Shown here: positions 17,446 through 27,080 of the stretch, piece after piece
How the letters are laid out: the number at the start of each line of letters is the position of its first letter
How positions within the stretch are numbered: position 1 is the stretch's first letter
Sequence record: DRR723986_16079
Length of the DNA: 37,521 bases
Direction: 5' to 3' (one strand)
Position numbers and translations under genes: made by a program
The notes under the pieces: generated by a model
The model's database searches: none
What the model saw: only the letters and a program-made list of their open reading frames with translations
Told to the model about the DNA's origin: nothing

Positions 17446-17453
17446 TATTTTTG
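17446..17453 (+). promoter_or_regulatory. -7 promoter box for the GT4 / thioesterase / GT9 operon
   Basis: TATTTTTG 14 nt upstream of the ATG at 17468. Confidence 0.55.
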
Positions 17454-17467
17454 CTTAAAATTAGTAA

Positions 17468-18514
17468 ATGTCGGCTAGAAAAATAGCATTTTTATATTCA
17501 GAAGTTGCAGGTTATTTCTTGTCTGGAGTTGAGCAGCTAGCAAAAGAAGCAGATGTGCTAATTTTTAGATGGCCCGTTAATAATGAAGCTCCATTTGAAT
17601 TATCCAAAATTGATAAAGTCGAAATTCTTGACAGAAGTAAATTTAGTCAAGCTGAGCTAGAAGCTAAGTTGCATGAGTTTAACCCTGATACCTTGATTTG
17701 TTCAGGATGGATGGATAAAGGTTATGTTAAGGCAGTCAAGTCCTTCAAAAAAAAGATTCCTACAGTATTAACATTAGACAATCACTGGGTCGGGAGTTTG
17801 AAACAGAGAGTTGCTACATTATTGTCTCGATTTTTACTGAGAAATGTTTTTTCCCATGCTTGGGTTCCAGGTGCACCACAGGCCATTTTTGCTCAGAAAT
17901 TAGGATATAGTGGAGGGCAGTTATTAACCGGATTTTATTGTGCAAATACAGATTTGTTTCGCTCAGTTTTTGAGAATTCAATTGAATTTAAAAAGGAGAA
18001 ATTTCCAAGAAGATTTCTATATGTCGCAAGATATGTTGAACATAAAGGGATTTTTGAAATGTGGGAAGCATTTAAACAAATTAAAAAAGAATTAAATACT
18101 GACTGGGAGTTGTGGTGTTTAGGCACGGGAGATGAATTCGAAAATAGGGTAGAAGCTGAAGGAATATCTCATTTCGGATTTGTTCAACCAGATGAAATGG
18201 AGCAATACGTCAGAGATACTGGCGTTTATATCTTGCCAAGTAAATTTGAGCCTTGGGGAGTAACCGTTCAAGAATTTGCGATAAGTGGTTTCCCGCTAAT
18301 AGTAAGTGAAAAAGTTGGGTCAAAAACGCAATTTTTGGATGAGACAAATGGTTTTGAAATAAAAGCTGGAAGCATAGAAGATCTGAAATCTGCTATGAAA
18401 AAAATGATTGAAAAATCAGACGAAGAGTTATTGAAGATGGCGACTGAAAGTAATCGAATAGGGATGTCCTATCAGTCAAAAGATTGGGCGAACAAAGTTT
18501 TAGGAATTAAATAA
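17468..18514 (+). CDS. Glycosyltransferase family 4
   Basis: LYVARYVEHKG and ILPSKFEPWGVTVQE (EX7E) GT-B motifs. Confidence 0.9.
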   Translation: MSARKIAFLYSEVAGYFLSGVEQLAKEADVLIFRWPVNNEAPFELSKIDKVEILDRSKFSQAELEAKLHEFNPDTLICSGWMDKGYVKAVKSFKKKIPTVLTLDNHWVGSLKQRVATLLSRFLLRNVFSHAWVPGAPQAIFAQKLGYSGGQLLTGFYCANTDLFRSVFENSIEFKKEKFPRRFLYVARYVEHKGIFEMWEAFKQIKKELNTDWELWCLGTGDEFENRVEAEGISHFGFVQPDEMEQYVRDTGVYILPSKFEPWGVTVQEFAISGFPLIVSEKVGSKTQFLDETNGFEIKAGSIEDLKSAMKKMIEKSDEELLKMATESNRIGMSYQSKDWANKVLGIK

Positions 18515-18515
18515 G

Positions 18516-18905
18516 ATGGAAAAATTAGGAATGAAACTGTGCATGACCAAAGATATTGGTGTTCACGGTAATTTATTTGGAGGTATTATGTTATCATGGT
18601 TGGATGAAACAGCGGCTACATGGGCTTGTAGTGTATGTCAAAACCCAAACATGGTTACAGTAAAAATTGACGAAACAAACTTTGAGCGACCGGTAAAAGT
18701 AGGTAACCAGGTCATTATCTATGGTGAAGTTCAAAAAATGGGTACATCCTCATTAACCATGTATGTTGAAGGAAGAACGTCAAACTACTACACAGGAGAA
18801 GAACAATTGGTTTGCTCAACAATTTTCATTTTTGTTAGAATTGACGAAAGTGGAGGAGCCATTCCAATTGATGAAGCTGTGAGACGAAAATACCAGAATA
18901 AATAG
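18516..18905 (+). CDS. Acyl-CoA thioesterase (hotdog fold)
   Basis: HGNLFGGIMLSWLDE, F.RPVKVG and GTSS motifs. Confidence 0.9.
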   Translation: MEKLGMKLCMTKDIGVHGNLFGGIMLSWLDETAATWACSVCQNPNMVTVKIDETNFERPVKVGNQVIIYGEVQKMGTSSLTMYVEGRTSNYYTGEEQLVCSTIFIFVRIDESGGAIPIDEAVRRKYQNK

Positions 18906-18910
18906 ATCAA

Positions 18911-19882
18911 TTGAGTCGGTTTCTAATCATACAAACAGCTTTTATTGGAGATGTCATTTTGGCGACTTCCTTAATTGAATCATTGGCAAAAGGAGTAGAT
19001 GATGTTGAAATTGACGTTTTAGTTCGAAAGGGAAATGAAGGATTACTGAAGAATAATCCACATGTCAATCAAATACTTATTTGGGATAAATCGAATGCTA
19101 AATATGCTAATTTGAAAAAGTTGGCGAAAACCATTCGTCAAACAAGATATGACGTCTTGCTAAATTTGCAGAGATTTGGATCAACCGGTTATTTAAGTTG
19201 GCGAAGCAAAGCAAAGCAAATTATTGGTTTCGATAAAAATCCCTTTTCTTTTTGTTATACTCATAAGGTAAAACATGAAATCGGTAACGGAAGGCATGAA
19301 ATAGAACGTAATCTGGATTTAATTCAACAAATAGGTGATTTTATCCTCAGTAAGCCAAAATTGTATCCTGATGCAAATGATGACGAAAAAATTCGTCTTT
19401 TTTCAGAACGTAATTATTATGTTTTGGCTCCAGCATCTGTTTGGTTTACCAAACAATTACCTTCAGAAAAATGGATTGAATTAATCAACAAAATACCTGA
19501 AGACCATCAGATTCTGTTTATCGGTGCGCCTTCAGATCAATCTTTCATCAATGACTTAATTGATAAAAGTAAGAGATCGGATAGTCAGAATTTAGCAGGG
19601 GAATTGAACTTGTTGCAGTCTGCAGCCTTGATGAAAAATGCAAAGCGTGTATTTGTAAATGATTCTGCCCCTTTACACTTGGCATCAGCAGTAAATGCAC
19701 CTGTTACTGCATTCTTTTGCTCTACAATTCCAGAATTTGGATTTGGACCTCTGTCTGATGACCAAAAAATTCTTCAAATTGAAAAAGACCTAACTTGCCG
19801 CCCCTGCGGTTTACATGGAAAATCTTCATGCCCTAAACAACATTTTCACTGTGGACATAAAATAAGTGTAACTATCGATTAA
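18911..19882 (+). CDS. Glycosyltransferase family 9 (LPS heptosyltransferase-like)
   Basis: QTAFIGDVIL, APASVWFTK, NDSAPLHLASA and CRPCGLHG..CP motifs; TTG start. Confidence 0.9.
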   Translation: MSRFLIIQTAFIGDVILATSLIESLAKGVDDVEIDVLVRKGNEGLLKNNPHVNQILIWDKSNAKYANLKKLAKTIRQTRYDVLLNLQRFGSTGYLSWRSKAKQIIGFDKNPFSFCYTHKVKHEIGNGRHEIERNLDLIQQIGDFILSKPKLYPDANDDEKIRLFSERNYYVLAPASVWFTKQLPSEKWIELINKIPEDHQILFIGAPSDQSFINDLIDKSKRSDSQNLAGELNLLQSAALMKNAKRVFVNDSAPLHLASAVNAPVTAFFCSTIPEFGFGPLSDDQKILQIEKDLTCRPCGLHGKSSCPKQHFHCGHKISVTID

Positions 19883-19929
19883 ATAATCACGTTTAACGAT
19901 AGAACGAAATAATTAGTCTAAAAGAAGCT

Positions 19930-19937
19930 TACCTTTG
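19930..19937 (+). promoter_or_regulatory. -7 promoter box for the putative EPS operon
   Basis: TACCTTTG is a perfect TAnnTTTG match, 14 nt upstream of the ATG at 19952. Confidence 0.6.
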
Positions 19938-19951
19938 TCGGCTTATTGAAA

Positions 19952-21988
19952 ATGGTGAAAAGACTTATAACGATAGTATTATTAATACTGATGGGTGCCG
20001 GTGTGCACGCCCAATCAGATTCTCTGTTTTTCGTAAAAGTCGAAAAACTACAAGAGCTTTTTGATAAGGCAAACTATAAACCCATTCAATTTGAGGATAC
20101 TTCACTTGAGATTATCTCAACCATTGCATTGATGCAAAGAAGCGGGAATGATGTTACTCGTTCACTTTATCTAGAAAAACAGTTAGAACTCGCAAAGCGC
20201 GATTACGGAATTGGAATCACGGGAGGGTATCTTGAAAACTTGAATACCGCCTTTGGAGATGTTGAAGATAATGTCTTTTATGCGCGTAGATTCACTTTGG
20301 GTGCACAATGGGATGTGTTGAAAGGTGGATTTTTTGAAAATAAAGTTCGAGCTAGAATATTAGAAGATCGAATTTTACGTGAGCAAATGAATCAGGATGC
20401 AGCGGCAGAGAGCTACAATTACCTTAAAAGATTTGATCATACAATATATACCTTCAATGTTGTTAAGATTCAATTATTAGAAGCCAGAAAAAAACAATTA
20501 GAAAAGGAATACAGCACAATTAGTGAACTCGTCTATCTTAAAAAGTTAAAGAAAGAAGACCTAATAGGTTTGGATACAAGACTTTCAGAGGTGGAAAGTT
20601 TAATTAAAGTATACCAGAGTTATAACGAATACCTAACGCCAGAGAATGATTCTCTGGAATTTGACATTTATAACCTTCCACTGATTGATCTTGATTATGA
20701 TAAAATTTTTAAATCAATCGGAGCTCAAACGGATAGCTTGCTTTCTACACGTGTTTATGATGATTATTATAGCTGGTATCATCAGATTAATTTGAGAACT
20801 TATGTTCGCTATAACTATTACGACATTATAGATAATAACGACAGGTCTTTTGTGGCTGCCGGATTAAATTTCACGGTACCAATTCCTTTTAATACGAAAC
20901 TTAAAAATCAAGTAGCTCAAGAAAAATATCGATATGATAATTCCAAACTAGTTGAAAAGAGAGTGAATTTAGAAGAAGAGGTATTATCAACAGGATATGA
21001 GTTTAGATATAAATTAAAGCAATTCATCAGTTTTTACCAGAAGCGAAAAATGTTTATGGAGAAATTAAGAGTTGAAAAGGTGAAAATGAGATTACATGAT
21101 AATAATATTGATCCACTTTTAGGCCTTGAGCTTTATGATGACCTCTTACAAATTGATATCGAATTGGTTGATTTACTGCAAAACCTTTATCTAAAAGCAT
21201 TAAAAATCCATTCAAAAATTCCACATTCCAACATTCGTGATATCATAGTACCACAAACAGCTCAGCAGATTAACGAGTATGTGGATAATAAGAAAAGATC
21301 AGTCTATGTATGGACAAAAACATTTGAAGAATATTCAGCAGATTTCTTGGTTGAATACGCTATCTATAATGAGTTTAAGGATATCATAGTGTCAACTTCT
21401 GCTTCGGATACTTCAAGCGAAAAGGTAAAATTCATTGAAATGGCTGGCGCAAATGCTGACGTGCATTACATGCTTGGCGAAAACAGACTGTTTTATGAAG
21501 AAAATATTGAAGGTTATTTGGACGATATTTTAAGTAAATACAAGATTAAACCAGCTGGAATTCATATTGATATTGAACCACATACTTTCGAGAATTGGGC
21601 AACCGAAAAACAAAAATTGACCAGCCAATACCTTGAAATGATGGGAAAAATTAGTACGTACTGTAAAGGTAACGAACTCAAATTGGCAGTTTCTGTTCCT
21701 TTACATTATGGTGCTGAAGTAATAGACAGATTATTAGTTATTTGTGATGAAATATTCTTTATGTGCTACGAAAATGTGAAGGCTTCATACATCCAAAGAA
21801 AGGTTTTACCATATATAGATAACGGTAAAGATCAAATTGTATTAGCGTTTAGAACAGAAGATTTTGCCAACAGAGTTGAAATGGAGGATAAAATAAATGA
21901 GATGCAAAAGCTAACTTCTTTGCGCTCATTCGCGTATCATGACCTACGTAGAATAATTTCCTTTGATAGAAGTAATATAGAAAAGTGA
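19952..21988 (+). CDS. Secreted protein: TolC/OEP-like N-terminal region fused to a glycoside-hydrolase-like TIM-barrel domain
   Basis: Signal peptide AHA/VHA-Q; two repeats of beta-hairpin (LGAQWDVLKGG; AGLNFTVPI) plus long helices; C-terminal domain with SVYVW, GIHIDIEPH, FMCYE and FAYHD. Confidence 0.6.
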   Translation: MVKRLITIVLLILMGAGVHAQSDSLFFVKVEKLQELFDKANYKPIQFEDTSLEIISTIALMQRSGNDVTRSLYLEKQLELAKRDYGIGITGGYLENLNTAFGDVEDNVFYARRFTLGAQWDVLKGGFFENKVRARILEDRILREQMNQDAAAESYNYLKRFDHTIYTFNVVKIQLLEARKKQLEKEYSTISELVYLKKLKKEDLIGLDTRLSEVESLIKVYQSYNEYLTPENDSLEFDIYNLPLIDLDYDKIFKSIGAQTDSLLSTRVYDDYYSWYHQINLRTYVRYNYYDIIDNNDRSFVAAGLNFTVPIPFNTKLKNQVAQEKYRYDNSKLVEKRVNLEEEVLSTGYEFRYKLKQFISFYQKRKMFMEKLRVEKVKMRLHDNNIDPLLGLELYDDLLQIDIELVDLLQNLYLKALKIHSKIPHSNIRDIIVPQTAQQINEYVDNKKRSVYVWTKTFEEYSADFLVEYAIYNEFKDIIVSTSASDTSSEKVKFIEMAGANADVHYMLGENRLFYEENIEGYLDDILSKYKIKPAGIHIDIEPHTFENWATEKQKLTSQYLEMMGKISTYCKGNELKLAVSVPLHYGAEVIDRLLVICDEIFFMCYENVKASYIQRKVLPYIDNGKDQIVLAFRTEDFANRVEMEDKINEMQKLTSLRSFAYHDLRRIISFDRSNIEK

Positions 21989-21998
21989 TAGTGATTAC

Positions 21999-23162
21999 AT
22001 GAAAAGTGTAAACTTTAAAAGAAAAGAAGAGAGTTACCTAAGGTATTTTGAAGAACAAAGTGCCCGTAAAACTAAACGTCCGTTCAATTGGGATCGTTTT
22101 GTTTATTTGGTGCTGCTCGCTATTTTCTTGTTCTTTACGGGGAGATTTATTATTAACTCTTATTTCTACATTGAAGGTAATGGTCAAGTATTATTTGAAA
22201 GTGTTGACATTAGGCATACTGATGATATTCGAATACTTCAATTCAATGTTGAAGAAGGAGATGACGTGAAAATAGGGGATACACTTTTTACCTACTTTTT
22301 AGATGAAGATATGTTTGGTGATGGGCATGGAGGCGGATCTAATTCTGTAAGTATTGCAGGTGGAGGTAAAAAAGATTCTTGGATTGAAAGAGAGTTGTAT
22401 ACTTTACGTAAAAATGTACAGTTAAATGCTGTTAGAATAAATGATGATAAGGAACTATTGGCAATTTATGAGAGTGACCTTGAGCGCGTAAGAAATGAGG
22501 TTATCTTGGATGCAGTATCACACACAAATCTTGAAAATCTAGAATACCAGATTGCTAAATTGAATGCGGATATTAATGTCCTGTCATCTCAAATTGGTAT
22601 TTATAGGAAACAAATAGCCTATTTAGAAGGACTCATTCAAGAGGAAGACGACAGAGTGATTAAAATTGAACAAGAAACCAATGGAGGTGGAGGAGGAGCT
22701 GGCGGCGCAGGCGAAAAATATCCTTCAGCTTTTAAGAAGGATATGCTAATGCTCGCTGGAGTAGAGAATATTGAAGGCTTTAAAATATTCACTTGTCCTA
22801 TTGATGGTAATATAACTCGAATTCACAAGCAGCCTTATGAGGTAGCCTTGAAAACTGAAACCATTTGTTCAATCCATCAGCCAAATGATGTTCACATTAA
22901 AGGATTCTTTAATCAAGAAGATCTAAAACACTTGAACCAGGGTGATTTAGTAAACATTGAATTCCCAGATGGAACAATGTCTAAAGGAATTGTTGATCGT
23001 TTCTATTCTGCTACGTATATCTTACCTGAAGAATTCCAAAAGAAGTTTGAGCCAACTACAAGAACTTTGGCGGCAGATATTTTACCAATAGGAGAGAACG
23101 ACTTAGATATTTGGAGAAAATATTATAAGTTAAGTGTTAAAGTAACTAAACGTACATTCTAG
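21999..23162 (+). CDS. HlyD-like periplasmic adaptor / membrane fusion protein
   Basis: Single N-terminal TM helix; lipoyl half-motifs VEEGDDVKIGDTLF and CPIDGNI flanking a coiled coil; beta-barrel C-terminus. Confidence 0.8.
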   Translation: MKSVNFKRKEESYLRYFEEQSARKTKRPFNWDRFVYLVLLAIFLFFTGRFIINSYFYIEGNGQVLFESVDIRHTDDIRILQFNVEEGDDVKIGDTLFTYFLDEDMFGDGHGGGSNSVSIAGGGKKDSWIERELYTLRKNVQLNAVRINDDKELLAIYESDLERVRNEVILDAVSHTNLENLEYQIAKLNADINVLSSQIGIYRKQIAYLEGLIQEEDDRVIKIEQETNGGGGGAGGAGEKYPSAFKKDMLMLAGVENIEGFKIFTCPIDGNITRIHKQPYEVALKTETICSIHQPNDVHIKGFFNQEDLKHLNQGDLVNIEFPDGTMSKGIVDRFYSATYILPEEFQKKFEPTTRTLAADILPIGENDLDIWRKYYKLSVKVTKRTF

Positions 23163-23163
23163 T

Positions 23164-24582
23164 ATGGCGGCAAAATTAAATATCAATAAAGAAGATTCTG
23201 TCATTGAATTTGGTGGATTCACCTTTCTATTAATAGACGCCTTGGACAACTTGGATGTTGAAAACGTTCAGTTTCATTCGGCAGTTATTATTCAAGGGAA
23301 GGATAGAGCGTTTATCCGCCAGATTGTTACTCGTATTCGATCAAATAATTCGGCTGATATTTATTTGAAGCCCATCTTTATATTGAAGGGAATTACCATT
23401 GTAGATCCAATGGTGAACAAGCTGGTAGATGGAACACTGTACAGTTTAGATCAAATAGAATTGATCATACCAGAAGTAGAACGAATCCTTACTAAAACAA
23501 AAGATCTTCACTTTACCAATTCAATTTCGTTTGAAGCGCAAATGATTGAAAAGACGATTTCTTTCATGTACACCTGCGAAATTCAAGACCTTGATCCGAT
23601 TCCATATATCTATTCGTCTAACAATTATTCTTATCCGATTTTGTCTGTAAACTTTAGACAAAGAGATGAGCATATCGCGCTAGATATATTAGAGTTGGCC
23701 GAAAGAGAAGGGATTTTTAGTTCTACTTATGTAGATAGAATTTATTTATGTCCATCATGTCAAGGTGGGCATTTAACCTACAGAGAGGTTTGTCCTAAAT
23801 GTGGAAGTTCGAATTCTACAACCGAAGATATTATTCATCACTTTCCCTGTGCATACGTGGGACCATTAAGTGATTTTACCAATGAAATTGATGATCAATT
23901 AGATTGTCCAAAGTGTAATAAAAGATTGAGACACATTGGTGTAGATTACGATAAGCCTTCTGTTTTGCACGAGTGTAAGGCTTGCGACCATAAATTCCAA
24001 GACTTTAACGTGAAGGCCAAATGTTTGGCTTGTGGAACCGATAACCTGGTTGAGCAATTGAAAGGTAGAGAAGTTAGAAAATATAATCTTACTAAAAAAG
24101 GAGAGTTAGCGGCCATTAACGGATTTGTATCTACATCAAAAGACATTGAAGAGATTATTGGAACGGTGAAGTTTGAAACGTTCTTAACCATGTTGAAATA
24201 TGAGATCGAGCGTTTGAGACAAACAGAAGGTGCTTCAAATATTTGTGCAATTCACCTGTCTAATCCATCTCAGATCTATTCAAAAATGGGCTCTGAGGTA
24301 CAAAAGGTTTTGTTGAAAGACCTGGTGAAAGTGATTCGATCAAATATCCGTTCATCCGATATTATTTCATTCCAAAGTTCTTCAACGATTATTCTTTCAA
24401 TGAACGAAATTCCAACTAGAATTGCGAAACGTATCTTGAATGAGATCATTAACATGTTGAAAAAATTAATTGCAACAACCTTTAAGGATATCGTTGTTGA
24501 GTTCGAATTTGAAGTTGTAAAACTAGATTATAAATTGTCTCCGCAGCTGCATATCCAGCAGTTGACGAAGTCATTTGGATAA
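23164..24582 (+). CDS. TackOD1-like zinc-ribbon protein with degenerate REC-like N-terminus and degenerate GGDEF-like C-terminus
   Basis: CPSC, CPKC, HFPC, CPKC..LRHIGVDYD, CKAC and CLAC motifs; C-terminal EIER..Q / IRSNIRSSDII pattern without a GGDEF signature. Confidence 0.7.
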   Translation: MAAKLNINKEDSVIEFGGFTFLLIDALDNLDVENVQFHSAVIIQGKDRAFIRQIVTRIRSNNSADIYLKPIFILKGITIVDPMVNKLVDGTLYSLDQIELIIPEVERILTKTKDLHFTNSISFEAQMIEKTISFMYTCEIQDLDPIPYIYSSNNYSYPILSVNFRQRDEHIALDILELAEREGIFSSTYVDRIYLCPSCQGGHLTYREVCPKCGSSNSTTEDIIHHFPCAYVGPLSDFTNEIDDQLDCPKCNKRLRHIGVDYDKPSVLHECKACDHKFQDFNVKAKCLACGTDNLVEQLKGREVRKYNLTKKGELAAINGFVSTSKDIEEIIGTVKFETFLTMLKYEIERLRQTEGASNICAIHLSNPSQIYSKMGSEVQKVLLKDLVKVIRSNIRSSDIISFQSSSTIILSMNEIPTRIAKRILNEIINMLKKLIATTFKDIVVEFEFEVVKLDYKLSPQLHIQQLTKSFG

Positions 24583-25895
24583 TGTTCGAAGAGTTATTAG
24601 ATAACTACCTGCGATTCTTACAGAGTCTGACAGTCGATCATTTTATACGATTGTTCTGGTTCTACATTTTCTTTGAGTTTATCAGATACTTTTTACTGGA
24701 ATTCCTGGTTTTAAACCTTTGGAAATTATCTAAACTGTGGAACAAAGACAAGGTAGCCAAGGCGAAGAAAAAATTCCATTTTGAATATCCCTTAATATCG
24801 ATAATCATTCCTGGTAAAAACGAGGGAAAGCACTTATACAAGTTGATCAAGTCTCTTAATGAACAGACGTATAAGAATACAGAAATAATAGTCGTTGATG
24901 ACGGATCTGATGATGATACGCCTGTCATTGGTCGAGATTTGGAGAAGGCTGGGTTGATTGATGTTTTTATTCGAAACGAGGTTAGGGGAGGAAAGGCCTC
25001 TGGGGCAAATACGGCGCTTCGATTTACAAAAGGTAAATACATTGTCCATCTTGATGCCGATTGCTCTTATGACAGAGACGCAATAGAAAAGATTATCATT
25101 CCATTTTATTTGGATAAAAATGTTGCCGGGGTTGGTGGTAACGTAATGGTTCGAAATTATGACGAATCTCTCGTTACATCTTTACAAGCCATTGAATACT
25201 ATGATACCATCTCCATTGGTAGGGTAGTTACTTCTTATTTAGGGATATACAGAATTATTTCAGGTGCATTTGGTGCCTTTAGAGCTGATGCCTTAGAGCA
25301 GGTTAAAGGATGGGATATCGGCCCTGGACTAGATGGCGATATTACTGTAAAACTGAGGAAACTTGGTTATAAGATTAAATTCGAGCAAGAGGCTGTTTGT
25401 CTTACTTCTGTGCCAAATACGGTTAAAAAATTGACGAGACAACGCTTGAGGTGGGATAAATCTTTAATTCGTTTTAGAGTTCGAAAACATAAAGATGTAC
25501 TTATACCAAATCAGGCCTTTAGTTTTCTTAACTTTTTTGCCTTTTTAGAGAACATTACCTATAACTTAATATTAAACTTTAAATGGTATTTTTATTTAGG
25601 AGATATGTTGATCAATTATAGATCCATGTTGGTGAATATCATCATCACGAATATCTTACTTTATACCTTTACCAACTTTTTCAAATTCGTGGTCTATAGC
25701 TTGTACAGAGCAAGAACAAATGCATCCTATACCTACTTTTTGGTCTACATTCCTTGTATGGTTTTCTACTTCGGATATTACCTCAGGGTGGTACGAACCA
25801 TTGCTTATATTCAAGAGTTGTTCTTCAAAAGATCCTACAAAGATCCGTGGAATCCAGAGAAAACTTCAGTACACGCTCAACGAATGAAACTATAG
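24582..25895 (+). CDS. Processive membrane glycosyltransferase family 2 (PgaC/IcaA/hyaluronan-synthase-like)
   Basis: VDDGS, GGKA, DAD, SGAFGAFR, GLDGD (at the TED position) and QRLRW motifs; N- and C-terminal TM helices. Confidence 0.9.
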   Translation: MFEELLDNYLRFLQSLTVDHFIRLFWFYIFFEFIRYFLLEFLVLNLWKLSKLWNKDKVAKAKKKFHFEYPLISIIIPGKNEGKHLYKLIKSLNEQTYKNTEIIVVDDGSDDDTPVIGRDLEKAGLIDVFIRNEVRGGKASGANTALRFTKGKYIVHLDADCSYDRDAIEKIIIPFYLDKNVAGVGGNVMVRNYDESLVTSLQAIEYYDTISIGRVVTSYLGIYRIISGAFGAFRADALEQVKGWDIGPGLDGDITVKLRKLGYKIKFEQEAVCLTSVPNTVKKLTRQRLRWDKSLIRFRVRKHKDVLIPNQAFSFLNFFAFLENITYNLILNFKWYFYLGDMLINYRSMLVNIIITNILLYTFTNFFKFVVYSLYRARTNASYTYFLVYIPCMVFYFGYYLRVVRTIAYIQELFFKRSYKDPWNPEKTSVHAQRMKL

Positions 25896-27080
25896 GATTT
25901 TCTTGAAAGTGAAAACGTATTCTGTCCCAGCGGCTGAGTGATTTTGGACGCATTCGCCATCTAATTGTTCAGTAAACGATTCTATCAATTCCAATCCTAA
26001 ACTAGATTCTCTGCTTGGCGTTTTCCATTCACCGTTATCGCGATAAGTCACTGTTGTGATGCCGTTATCATCTTGCTGTGCTTGTATTTCTAGCCTACCC
26101 GTTACACGATCTGCGAATCCATGCTCAATTGAATTTGAAACCAATTCGTTAAATATCAATGCCATTGGAACGATTGATTTAGGTTCAATACGTTTAATGT
26201 TAGAGTGAATTGAAGTTTCTACTTTAAGATTGACTGCATAAGAAGAAATTAAATCACTCACTAAGGCGTCTAGATAAGATTCTAAATCAATTTCAGTTAA
26301 CGATTCGGTTTGATACATACGCTCATGAATCATTGCCATTGCTGAAACACGGTTAATTGAATCGGTAAAATGATGTTTAGTAGATTCGTCTTCAACGTCA
26401 TGCAACTGTAATCGCAATAAGGAGGTGATCACCTGAAGATTGTTTTTTACTCGGTGATGAATCTCTTTTAACATTACCGTTTTTTCTTCATTTGATTTAG
26501 ACAATTCAACATTCGCTTCAACGTAATTGATTTCAGTAAACCGAAGTGCATTAATGACTTGAATGATCAAATAAGAGAAAATAACTCCAGACAGTAGGAT
26601 GTTTACCGTAAAATTGATCTGAGAATAATCGGTGAATTCTTTAAATACCCTGGTGATTTCTCCAACTCTATCCAGGTACAGAATGACTCCTACGGCTGAA
26701 ATATTGGCAAATAAATTAATGATTCCGGTGATTTTTCCGAGTACAAAAAACACATAAACTGCAACTGAAATAATCCAGAAAAAATCTACAAAATGTCCAA
26801 AATTTGAGGTCACCATCATATTAAAGATGGTCATACCAAAACCAAGTAACATGGCTACAGATGCTGCCAACTTATAGTTCTTGAATTGGAACAATAAAAT
26901 TAGAACGATCAAACATATGCCTGCACCTGTTAATATCGGATACATGTTGATGTCGCCTTGAATTAAATTAATGGTTCCTAAAACAGTCAGAACAATAACC
27001 AGAAACGTGAACATATTTCTGGTGACATCAAACTTTACTTTGTCAATTGGATTATCGCTATTAGAATTAAAGAATCCCAT
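25890..27080 (-). CDS. Membrane sensor histidine kinase, HisKA_2/HWE type
   Basis: About 5-6 TM helices; H-box EIHHRVKNNLQ, N-box NELVSNSIEH, DNG and SLGL. Confidence 0.9.
   Translation of the reverse strand: MGFFNSNSDNPIDKVKFDVTRNMFTFLVIVLTVLGTINLIQGDINMYPILTGAGICLIVLILLFQFKNYKLAASVAMLLGFGMTIFNMMVTSNFGHFVDFFWIISVAVYVFFVLGKITGIINLFANISAVGVILYLDRVGEITRVFKEFTDYSQINFTVNILLSGVIFSYLIIQVINALRFTEINYVEANVELSKSNEEKTVMLKEIHHRVKNNLQVITSLLRLQLHDVEDESTKHHFTDSINRVSAMAMIHERMYQTESLTEIDLESYLDALVSDLISSYAVNLKVETSIHSNIKRIEPKSIVPMALIFNELVSNSIEHGFADRVTGRLEIQAQQDDNGITTVTYRDNGEWKTPSRESSLGLELIESFTEQLDGECVQNHSAAGTEYVFTFKKIL

Follow-up and report, generated by a model that had tools for sequence, protein, structure and literature searches.

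A putative Mxd-type exopolysaccharide cassette of Bacteroidota with a TolC-fold channel fused to a GH18-like barrel

Synthase-dependent export of polysaccharides is textbook knowledge for the systems that use tetratricopeptide-repeat (TPR) porins, those for cellulose, alginate, Pel and poly-N-acetylglucosamine (PNAG). A route through an adaptor plus TolC is only now being recognised, in the Xcs model and, in 2026, in BgsAB-TolC. A synthase-HlyD-TolC model has been described for cyanobacterial XcsA/XcsB/TolC with the endoglucanase XcsC (PMC12430437, citing Maeda 2018), and a tripartite model for rhizobial BgsA/BgsB/TolC (PMC13438883). Closest to the locus described here is mxdABCD of Shewanella, reported to be required both for three-dimensional biofilm and for aggregation. 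The operon encodes the family-2 glycosyltransferase (GT2) MxdB, an MxdC that looks like part of an efflux pump, and the hypothetical protein MxdD (PMC3691769). The GGDEF domain of MxdA is degenerate (PMC3409153), and MxdA is described as binding cyclic di-GMP (c-di-GMP) and interacting with phospho-CheY3 and a diguanylate cyclase (PMC7666153, PMC11395469, citing Gambari 2019). The function of TackOD1, a domain of MxdA, has been called obscure (PMC5847659). The present work concerns a cassette of four genes, g1 to g4, which with its upstream motif occupies positions 19930–25895 of sequence record DRR723986_16079, a stretch of 37,521 nucleotides that is referred to as the window; all four lie on the + strand.

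From the computed folds and motifs, the homology to MxdA and MxdB, the tight coupling and conserved order of the genes, and the missing GGDEF enzymes of the carrier genomes, the four genes are read as a single exopolysaccharide machine of the Mxd type that depends on a synthase and spans the envelope, with a probability of roughly 0.75. Most likely the cassette is a Bacteroidota variant of an Mxd-type, TolC-dependent, synthase-driven exopolysaccharide pathway and not a categorically new system. The original prediction, made from the letters of the window alone, had taken the architecture to be undescribed; this is not supported, since g3, g4 and g2 are homologous to MxdA, MxdB and MxdC of a genetically studied operon (PMC3691769, PMC7666153) and the synthase-HlyD-TolC idea is already in print for Xcs and BgsAB-TolC (PMC12430437, PMC13438883). 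The correspondence with a characterised locus is partial: Mxd is related and has been characterised genetically, not biochemically, and is without the channel-hydrolase fusion. New here are the dedicated channel fused to a GH18-like barrel, a g3 protein composed of receiver-like, TackOD1 and dead GGDEF domains, and the lack of diguanylate cyclases in the carriers. A literature search, with most subscription journals outside its coverage, found no description of this Bacteroidota cassette or of a channel-hydrolase fusion.

The product of g3 shares 28% identity over 331 amino acids with MxdA of Shewanella oneidensis MR-1 (AAN57153.1, P0562; BLASTP E 2e-32), and MxdA gives the same two Pfam matches as g3, TackOD1 (E 4.7e-71) and a sub-threshold GGDEF. 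A metagenome locus (L088) with a protein 76% identical to MxdA contains open reading frames (ORFs) of 462, 444 and 362 amino acids (aa), followed by one of 129 aa. Its second protein is a GT2 with 30% identity to g4 (E 1.7e-45), its third, MxdC-like, matches HlyD_3, and its fourth, presumed to be MxdD, has no Pfam match, no similarity to g1 and no counterpart in the cassette.

A tblastn search of plasmid records with g3 matched 20 records, nine of which were inspected. The order TackOD1 protein, GT2, HlyD-type or adaptor-like protein was present in all five annotated proteobacterial loci with room for it (Plesiomonas, Rhodobacteraceae M382, Methylocystis, Palleronia and Phyllobacterium); such operons occur in Gamma- and Alphaproteobacteria too. 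The Plesiomonas proteins resemble g3 (28.5%, E 9e-35), g4 (30%, E 1.5e-46) and g2 (a HlyD-family adaptor; 23%, BLASTP E 5e-5), and relatives of its TackOD1 protein fill Vibrio, Photobacterium, Aliivibrio and Shewanella. On an unannotated Photobacterium plasmid locus, three ORFs of matching sizes stand in tandem. The Methylocystis locus also includes a TolC-family gene two genes beyond the trio, and the Palleronia TackOD1 protein has a genuine receiver domain.

Three further plasmid contexts were recorded. On the plasmid of Rhodobacteraceae bacterium M382 (L104) galE directly follows the trio, which suggests that the product of that lineage contains Gal or GalNAc. The 29-kb mobilizable plasmid pKAM345_3 of Aeromonas caviae (L084) carries, as the last gene before the record ends, an MxdA-like TackOD1/GGDEF gene annotated 'diguanylate cyclase'; its GGDEF site reads SEEIL, which makes the annotation doubtful. 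On two haloarchaeal plasmids (L102, L103) the TackOD1 proteins are of about 325 aa, with response-regulator genes nearby in Haloterrigena, and no annotated glycosyltransferase adjoins the TackOD1 gene, so the link between TackOD1 and a synthase is not universal.

The four ORFs of the cassette are closely packed. Gene g1 (19946–21988, 680 aa) specifies a secreted outer-membrane channel with a hydrolase-like barrel; g2 (21999–23162, 387 aa) a periplasmic adaptor (membrane fusion protein), the counterpart of MxdC; g3 (23164–24582, 472 aa) the MxdA homologue, a soluble regulator or partner subunit; and g4 (24582–25895, 437 aa) the counterpart of MxdB, a PgaC-like processive GT2 of the inner membrane. 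The three junctions are TGA-10 nt-ATG, TAG-1 nt-ATG and TAATG, the last a 1-nt overlap in which the final A of the g3 TAA is common to the ATG of g4; in this the letters agree with the coupling given in the original prediction, which had also supplied the operon with a −7 promoter of its own. A match to the Bacteroidetes −7 consensus TAnnTTTG, TACCTTTG, does lie at 19930–19937 (+), within the 63-bp gap between an upstream GT9 gene and g1 and 9 nt ahead of the first possible start codon of g1. However, the window holds 36 copies of TANNTTTG, fewer than the 51 ± 6.8 expected from shuffles, so that the motif alone is no promoter evidence and gives only a positional hint. No terminator-like hairpin was found within 19700–26200, and the G+C content of the cassette equals that of its surroundings.

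To examine synteny, relatives were collected with a g3 alignment, one genome per species; 579 were obtained, and the best 80 loci were kept. Of these, 79 carry the lineage name of a Bacteroidota group, and the remaining one goes under the title 'uncultured bacterium'. The four genes are syntenic well beyond the window: the order g1 channel half, g1 barrel half, g2, g3, g4 is colinear on one strand, with gaps below 600 nt, in 71 of the 80 (tblastn). Six of the rest are cut by contig ends and three deviate: L053 is without the synthase, L080 without the adaptor, and in L042 an 870-aa ORF with PKD domain and type IX secretion system (T9SS) tail (L042:1088-3700) is inserted between adaptor and regulator. 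Clustering of this kind is far beyond chance. Identity across the loci falls from g4 (58–96%) through g3 (35–90%) and g2 (32–84%) to g1 (27–77%), as expected from cytoplasm to surface. Only close relatives retain the genes that flank the cassette in the window (GT4, thioesterase and GT9 genes upstream; histidine kinase, aroA and DAHP synthase downstream), which marks the cassette as the conserved unit. Its distribution is sparse, a g3 homologue at E ≤ 1e-20 being present in 15 of 401 genomes and 10 of 180 genera of an even sample of the phylum.

Two irregular loci were seen. In the Bacteroidota genome G440, contig C116 holds two g3 homologues about 15 kb apart (53749-54963 and 68562-69578), which may be a duplicated system, and the synthase gene at L060:9433-10734 has an in-frame stop, which may be decay or an assembly error.

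Searches of Pfam and NCBIfam with g1 gave no match at E ≤ 0.01, and among its 117 relatives those with names are each a 'hypothetical protein' from Crocinitomicaceae, Flavobacteriales or Bacteroidota. Residues 1–22 form a cleavable signal peptide with no lipobox Cys. An AlphaFold (AF2) model built on 48 relatives had a predicted local distance difference test score (pLDDT) of 86.1 and a predicted template modelling score (pTM) of 0.73. Foldseek matched it to TolC (7ng9, E 2e-11), ST50, CusC, SilC, CmeC, OprM, OprN, VceC and MtrE (E 2e-11 to 3e-8), the TolC, CusC and OprM alignments spanning about 430 columns, and also to PgaB (E 5e-7). The TolC-fold part thereby placed at residues ~26–430 (20021–21235) was also found with VIA (CusC, Z 17.7 over residues 53–428), and the Pfam OEP model matches 28 of the 48 family members; the lowest E among them is 2.6e-7, whereas the g1 of the window itself reaches only 0.013.

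The remainder of g1, residues ~434–680 (21245–21985), is modelled as a (β/α)8 barrel, its fold proper at ~447–680 and VIA coverage from ~445. The TolC-like/TIM-barrel fusion named in the original prediction is thus found in a single ORF, and the barrel can be specified further as GH18/PgaB-like with a conserved motif of catalytic type. Channel and barrel share one open frame in 70 of the 72 loci where both halves are well covered. Of the 50 rows listed by VIA, 46 cover residues ~445–680, mostly with GH18 chitinases and GH18-like proteins (Z 16–19.5; for many GH18 chains 208–229 residues of the predicted model aligned at a root-mean-square deviation of about 3.0–3.5 Å). The PNAG hydrolase domains of BpsB and PgaB score Z 18.9 and 18.0. 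GH18 proteins have the signatures DxxDxDxE on strand β4 and MxYD after β6. In the model, β4 comprises residues 538–541 (DSSP), and directly after it stands the D-x-D-x-E-type motif H540-I-D542-I-E544 (21563–21577), within the setting G-I-H540-I-D542-I-E544-P, His taking the place of the middle GH18 Asp. D542 and E544 are invariant and H540 at least 90% conserved in 48 homologues, in which M606, Y608 and E609, an M-x-Y-E placed after β6, are invariant as well. Of 70 fused ORFs taken from the loci, 67 contain H-x-D-x-E-P. The sequence motifs would thus be a close, although not exact, match to the GH18 signatures. The C-terminus of TolC-family proteins is periplasmic, and the barrel should therefore sit in the periplasm beside the channel.

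In two loci, L033 and L034, one stop separates the channel and barrel halves; this may be decay or an assembly error.

The barrel may nevertheless be no enzyme but a chitinase-like protein, serving as a lectin-like guide or plug on the nascent chain or tethering the channel to peptidoglycan; we consider this unlikely. Its best VIA match is the non-catalytic IDGF-2 (Z 19.5), the cortex/peptidoglycan enzymes SleL and Cwp19 (the latter at Z 18.2) are near the top, no glycoside-hydrolase Pfam model matches, and His replaces the first Asp of the GH18 motif. Chi-lectins have lost the acid/base Glu of that motif, whereas the corresponding E544 is invariant here, together with D542 and the M-x-Y-E after β6, which argues against this reading.

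The HlyD-like adaptor of the original prediction was recovered in g2, which matches HlyD_3 (E 1.2e-4, 23.2 bits, above the 22.2 cut-off) and, below cut-off, the RND_mfp, type_I_hlyD and EmrA models. Run against the PDB, a profile of 32 family members matched most of EmrA (2.2e-4) as well as MacA (3.6e-4) and ZneB. The protein has Gly-rich linkers and a single transmembrane helix at its N-terminal end (residues 34–52); g2 is a membrane-fusion (periplasmic adaptor) protein of the EmrA/MacA/HlyD type.

What had been predicted as a TackOD1 zinc-ribbon protein, g3, does possess TackOD1 zinc ribbons (residues 125–309, 23536–24090; Pfam E 1.1e-51), and two more domains can be added. Its model (pLDDT 92) has a receiver-like domain at residues 18–113 (23215–23502; VIA with receiver 3jte: Z 9.1, 2.3 Å, 91 residues aligned) and a GGDEF-fold domain at residues 326–472 (24139–24579; Pfam sub-threshold E 7e-4). 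The GGDEF fold is complete, with Z up to 17.6, and PelD aligns at Z 9.6. No hydrophobic segment is present. The cyclase motif is lost: R396-S-S-D399, an RxxD resembling an I-site, is followed five residues later by S405-S-S-T-I409 in the GG(D/E)EF place (24349–24390), GG(D/E)EF occurs in none of 69 homologues, and the commonest residues at the site are N/S, E/S, S, T and F. The RxxD is intact in the window; of the 69 family members, 66 have D399 and only 38 have R396. Position 44, equated by strand order and not by residue-level superposition with the phospho-acceptor at the end of receiver strand β3, is Gln in the window, so that the Asp is not present there; the 69 homologues have mainly Asp (21), Glu (16), Asn (11) or Gln (9). 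A prediction of the g3-g4 complex scored 0.10 against a mark of 0.34, with its own alignments not used and controls not folded, and gives no verdict.

The state of c-di-GMP signalling was examined in 17 carrier genomes that are 98–100% complete, 14 from the phylum sample and three of the family. None has a GGDEF above the Pfam cut-off, and the only two sub-threshold matches are in ORFs of 478 and 486 aa. The nearest genome, G001, was used for genome-wide checks (98% DNA identity over the cassette; 93% complete) and has no GGDEF above cut-off, no EAL and no PilZ. Among 61 genomes of the family 15 have a GGDEF match at E ≤ 0.01, with just two above cut-off, one in a 255-aa ORF unrelated to g3 (103 bits) and one in a 478-aa ORF of g3-like length. 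Since no diguanylate cyclase was found in the 17 carriers, control by c-di-GMP as in Shewanella is unlikely here. As an alternative ligand of g3, c-di-AMP is also unlikely in the genus: no DAC (c-di-AMP cyclase) domain was found in G001 or in G005, a complete genome of the same genus, while the carriers G423 and G228 have one. This genus may make neither of the two common cyclic dinucleotides.

That the cassette works as proposed for Shewanella, with g3 as a c-di-GMP receptor that binds at RxxD and switches the synthase on, is accordingly very unlikely. MxdA is reported to bind c-di-GMP (PMC7666153, PMC11395469, citing Gambari 2019), the window keeps R396-x-x-D399 with D399 common in the family, and an intact GGDEF fold aligns with that of PelD, itself a GGDEF-like c-di-GMP receptor. 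The genome counts point the other way: GGDEF enzymes are missing from the 17 carriers, G001 is without EAL or PilZ, the family sample holds one match in an ORF of unrelated length and a second in an ORF as long as g3, and R396 is poorly kept.

The processive GT2 with D,D,D,QxxRW that had been assigned to g4 was recovered in full. Its motifs are DD106-107, D158-A-D160 (25053–25061), D251-G-D253 and Q287-R-L-R-W291 (25440–25454), and D107, D158, D160, D251, D253, Q287, R288, R290 and W291 are invariant in 30 homologues. Hydrophobic segments lie at residues 26–44 and 313–405. Pfam gave Glycos_transf_2 (E 2.3e-28) and Chitin_synth_2 (1.8e-9), with no match to PilZ. The best named model is PgaC_IcaA (TIGR03937), at 163.6 bits far below its cut-off of 422.3, followed by an XrtG-associated glycosyltransferase and NodC (73 bits); a GT21 (ceramide glucosyltransferase) model also matches, and CelA reaches only 23.3 bits against a cut-off of 699. 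Among PDB sequences, hyaluronan synthases align over residues 141–390, that is catalytic and membrane parts. Because of the PgaC_IcaA, NodC, Chitin_synth_2 and hyaluronan synthase matches and the weak CelA score, g4 is placed with the processive synthases that transfer N-acetylglucosamine (GlcNAc) rather than with cellulose synthases; it is no PgaC orthologue.

GH18-type chemistry needs an N-acetyl group. The conserved H-x-D-x-E-P motif of g1 would thus point to a GlcNAc-rich polymer, and a synthase like PgaC, NodC, chitin synthase and hyaluronan synthase, a GH18-type motif and the lack of a deacetylase in the cassette together suggest, more weakly, a polymer rich in β-linked GlcNAc. The product, on which the original prediction had not committed itself, is narrowed in this way to a probable GlcNAc polymer through the motif of the barrel.

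A product other than a secreted high-molecular-weight polymer is highly improbable. It would be short GlcNAc oligomers in the manner of NodC signals, a periplasmic glycan or else a glycolipid, and the adaptor and TolC-fold channel would export this small product or something unrelated. NodC and GT21 models do match g4, and a channel-fused hydrolase could generate oligomers. Against this, g4 has QxxRW, carries membrane helices at its C-terminus and resembles hyaluronan synthase across the transmembrane region, the cassette holds no small-molecule pump, and the Shewanella homologue gives a matrix and aggregation phenotype (PMC3691769).

For the exopolysaccharide machine we infer the following course, its export steps through g4, g2 and g1 being taken from established knowledge of tripartite pumps and synthase-dependent systems. 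The synthase g4 would polymerise a nucleotide sugar at the inner membrane, most likely UDP-GlcNAc to give a β-linked GlcNAc-rich polymer, and translocate the chain. The adaptor g2, anchored in the inner membrane by a single pass, would bridge the periplasm to a trimer of g1, whose TolC-fold channel would be the exit duct, and the barrel of g1 would trim or release the chain in the periplasm. In other synthase systems BcsZ, the C-domain of PgaB, PelA, AlgL and XcsC trim or release chains. In the cytoplasm the MxdA-like g3 would control or scaffold the synthase. Its ancestral inputs may have been worn down in this lineage, with Gln at the phospho-acceptor position and SSSTI for GGDEF; this and the lack of diguanylate cyclases suggest that control is probably not by c-di-GMP. 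The cassette contains no ATP-binding cassette (ABC) or resistance-nodulation-division (RND) pump, no Wzx/Wzy and no deacetylase, as had been predicted, and a pump-less conduit of synthase, adaptor and TolC-type channel, the tripartite HlyD-TolC route fed by the GT2 in the original prediction, is the best reading.

A more specific proposal, which we put forward tentatively and think has somewhat less than an even chance of being correct, is that the cassette is a c-di-GMP-independent branch of a widespread, biochemically unstudied TackOD1-synthase-adaptor pathway, in which the channel has its own GH18-like enzyme, a chitin- or PNAG-like GlcNAc polymer is secreted and g3, an obligatory subunit of the synthase, responds to something other than a cyclic dinucleotide. 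If this is true, the polymer class of Mxd would have a name, TackOD1 would have a function, and the channel-enzyme fusion would join the known means of polysaccharide export.

Several points weigh against the exopolysaccharide machine as drawn above. Glycoside-hydrolase models are absent from the 27 Pfam families matched by the 48 g1 members at E ≤ 1, and a profile search of the PDB gave only a putative GH97 at E 0.018. The first residue of the barrel motif is His and not Asp, the top structural match of the predicted model is a non-enzymatic GH18-like protein, and high Z-scores come easily to TIM barrels. By direct BLAST, g2 does not match the Shewanella-type MxdC. The intact RxxD of the window's g3 could, on its sequence, still bind a dinucleotide, and the completeness of G001 is no more than 93%. 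Since the −7 motif does not rise above chance, the operon might also be read through from the upstream GT4-thioesterase-GT9 genes. The polymer has never been seen, for the cassette or for Mxd itself, and contact between the proteins is something we infer.

The neighbouring genes were considered as possible parts of the module. Upstream, a GT4, a hotdog thioesterase and a heptosyltransferase-like GT9 (17468–19882, +) have their own TAnnTTTG match at 17446 and were rejected, being kept only in 13–15 closely related loci and syntenic only in relatives at the level of the Crocinitomicaceae; they are probably lipopolysaccharide-core genes and not part of the cassette. Downstream, a membrane histidine kinase (25890–27080, − strand; HisKA_2/PhyK-like) runs towards g4 and shares 6 nt with its 3' end. 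This kinase is unlikely to be a dedicated partner, as it adjoins the cassette in only nine loci of close relatives and is lost in L007, L013-L015 and L019.

In 19 of 72 cassette loci, not including the window, an ORF of about 1000 aa follows the synthase on the same strand. The one examined (L016:10669-13686) has CotH, Lamin-tail and type IX secretion sorting domains. In some lineages, ORFs of this type and the one inserted in L042 may encode surface proteins that act together with the polymer; the window has neither.

With all parts of the route in one operon, a dedicated channel included, the cassette is a cleaner object for reconstitution than systems that borrow a housekeeping TolC. More than 15 years on from the genetic work in Shewanella, the GH18-like domain gives the first clue from sequence as to which polymer the Mxd family makes. 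An MxdA-type protein is conserved in genomes that have no diguanylate cyclases, and one may ask what is sensed there by a dead GGDEF joined to TackOD1 zinc ribbons. Carriers of the cassette are aquatic Crocinitomicaceae and other Bacteroidota, and in them it may influence aggregation and attachment to particles. The fusion, the clue to GlcNAc and the apparent independence of c-di-GMP make it a worthwhile experimental target.

Compared with GH18 chitinases and chitinase-like proteins, the barrel of g1 has the same (β/α)8 fold (Z 16–19.5 over about 210–230 residues), an acidic motif after β4 and M-x-Y-E after β6. It differs in being compact (about 235 residues), in matching no glycoside-hydrolase Pfam profile, in having His for the first Asp, and in being fused to the C-terminus of an outer-membrane channel.

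With Pga/Ica (PgaABCD) the cassette has in common that PgaC_IcaA is the best named model for g4 and that the g1 barrel resembles the C-terminal GH153 domain of PgaB and BpsB. The score of g4 is nevertheless far under the PgaC cut-off, no model for a PgaA-type TPR porin, a CE4 deacetylase or PgaD matches among the four proteins, and export would proceed through an adaptor and a TolC-fold channel instead.

The models for Xcs and BgsAB-TolC likewise combine a processive GT2, a HlyD-like adaptor and a TolC-type channel without a pump, and a glycoside hydrolase accompanies Xcs (PMC12430437). Their synthases make cellulose or mixed-linkage glucan and sense c-di-GMP through their own domains, whereas g4 has no PilZ and scores 23 bits with CelA. 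They use a housekeeping TolC encoded elsewhere, whereas here the channel is dedicated, lies in the operon and is fused to the hydrolase-like barrel, and they are without a TackOD1 protein.

Shewanella mxdABCD and the cassette are alike in several parts: MxdA and g3 both combine TackOD1 with a degenerate GGDEF, MxdB and g4 are PgaC-like GT2s of about 440 aa, MxdC and g2 are HlyD-type adaptors, and each set forms a tightly coupled single operon for which a role in matrix polysaccharide is presumed. The order there is A-B-C-D, compared with channel-C-A-B (channel, adaptor, regulator, synthase) in the cassette. Shewanella has many c-di-GMP enzymes, and its MxdA is described as binding c-di-GMP and phospho-CheY3 (PMC7666153), whereas the carriers of the cassette are without GGDEF enzymes. 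Finally, the Shewanella-type operon has no outer-membrane gene, whereas the cassette encodes the TolC-fold/GH18-like fusion.

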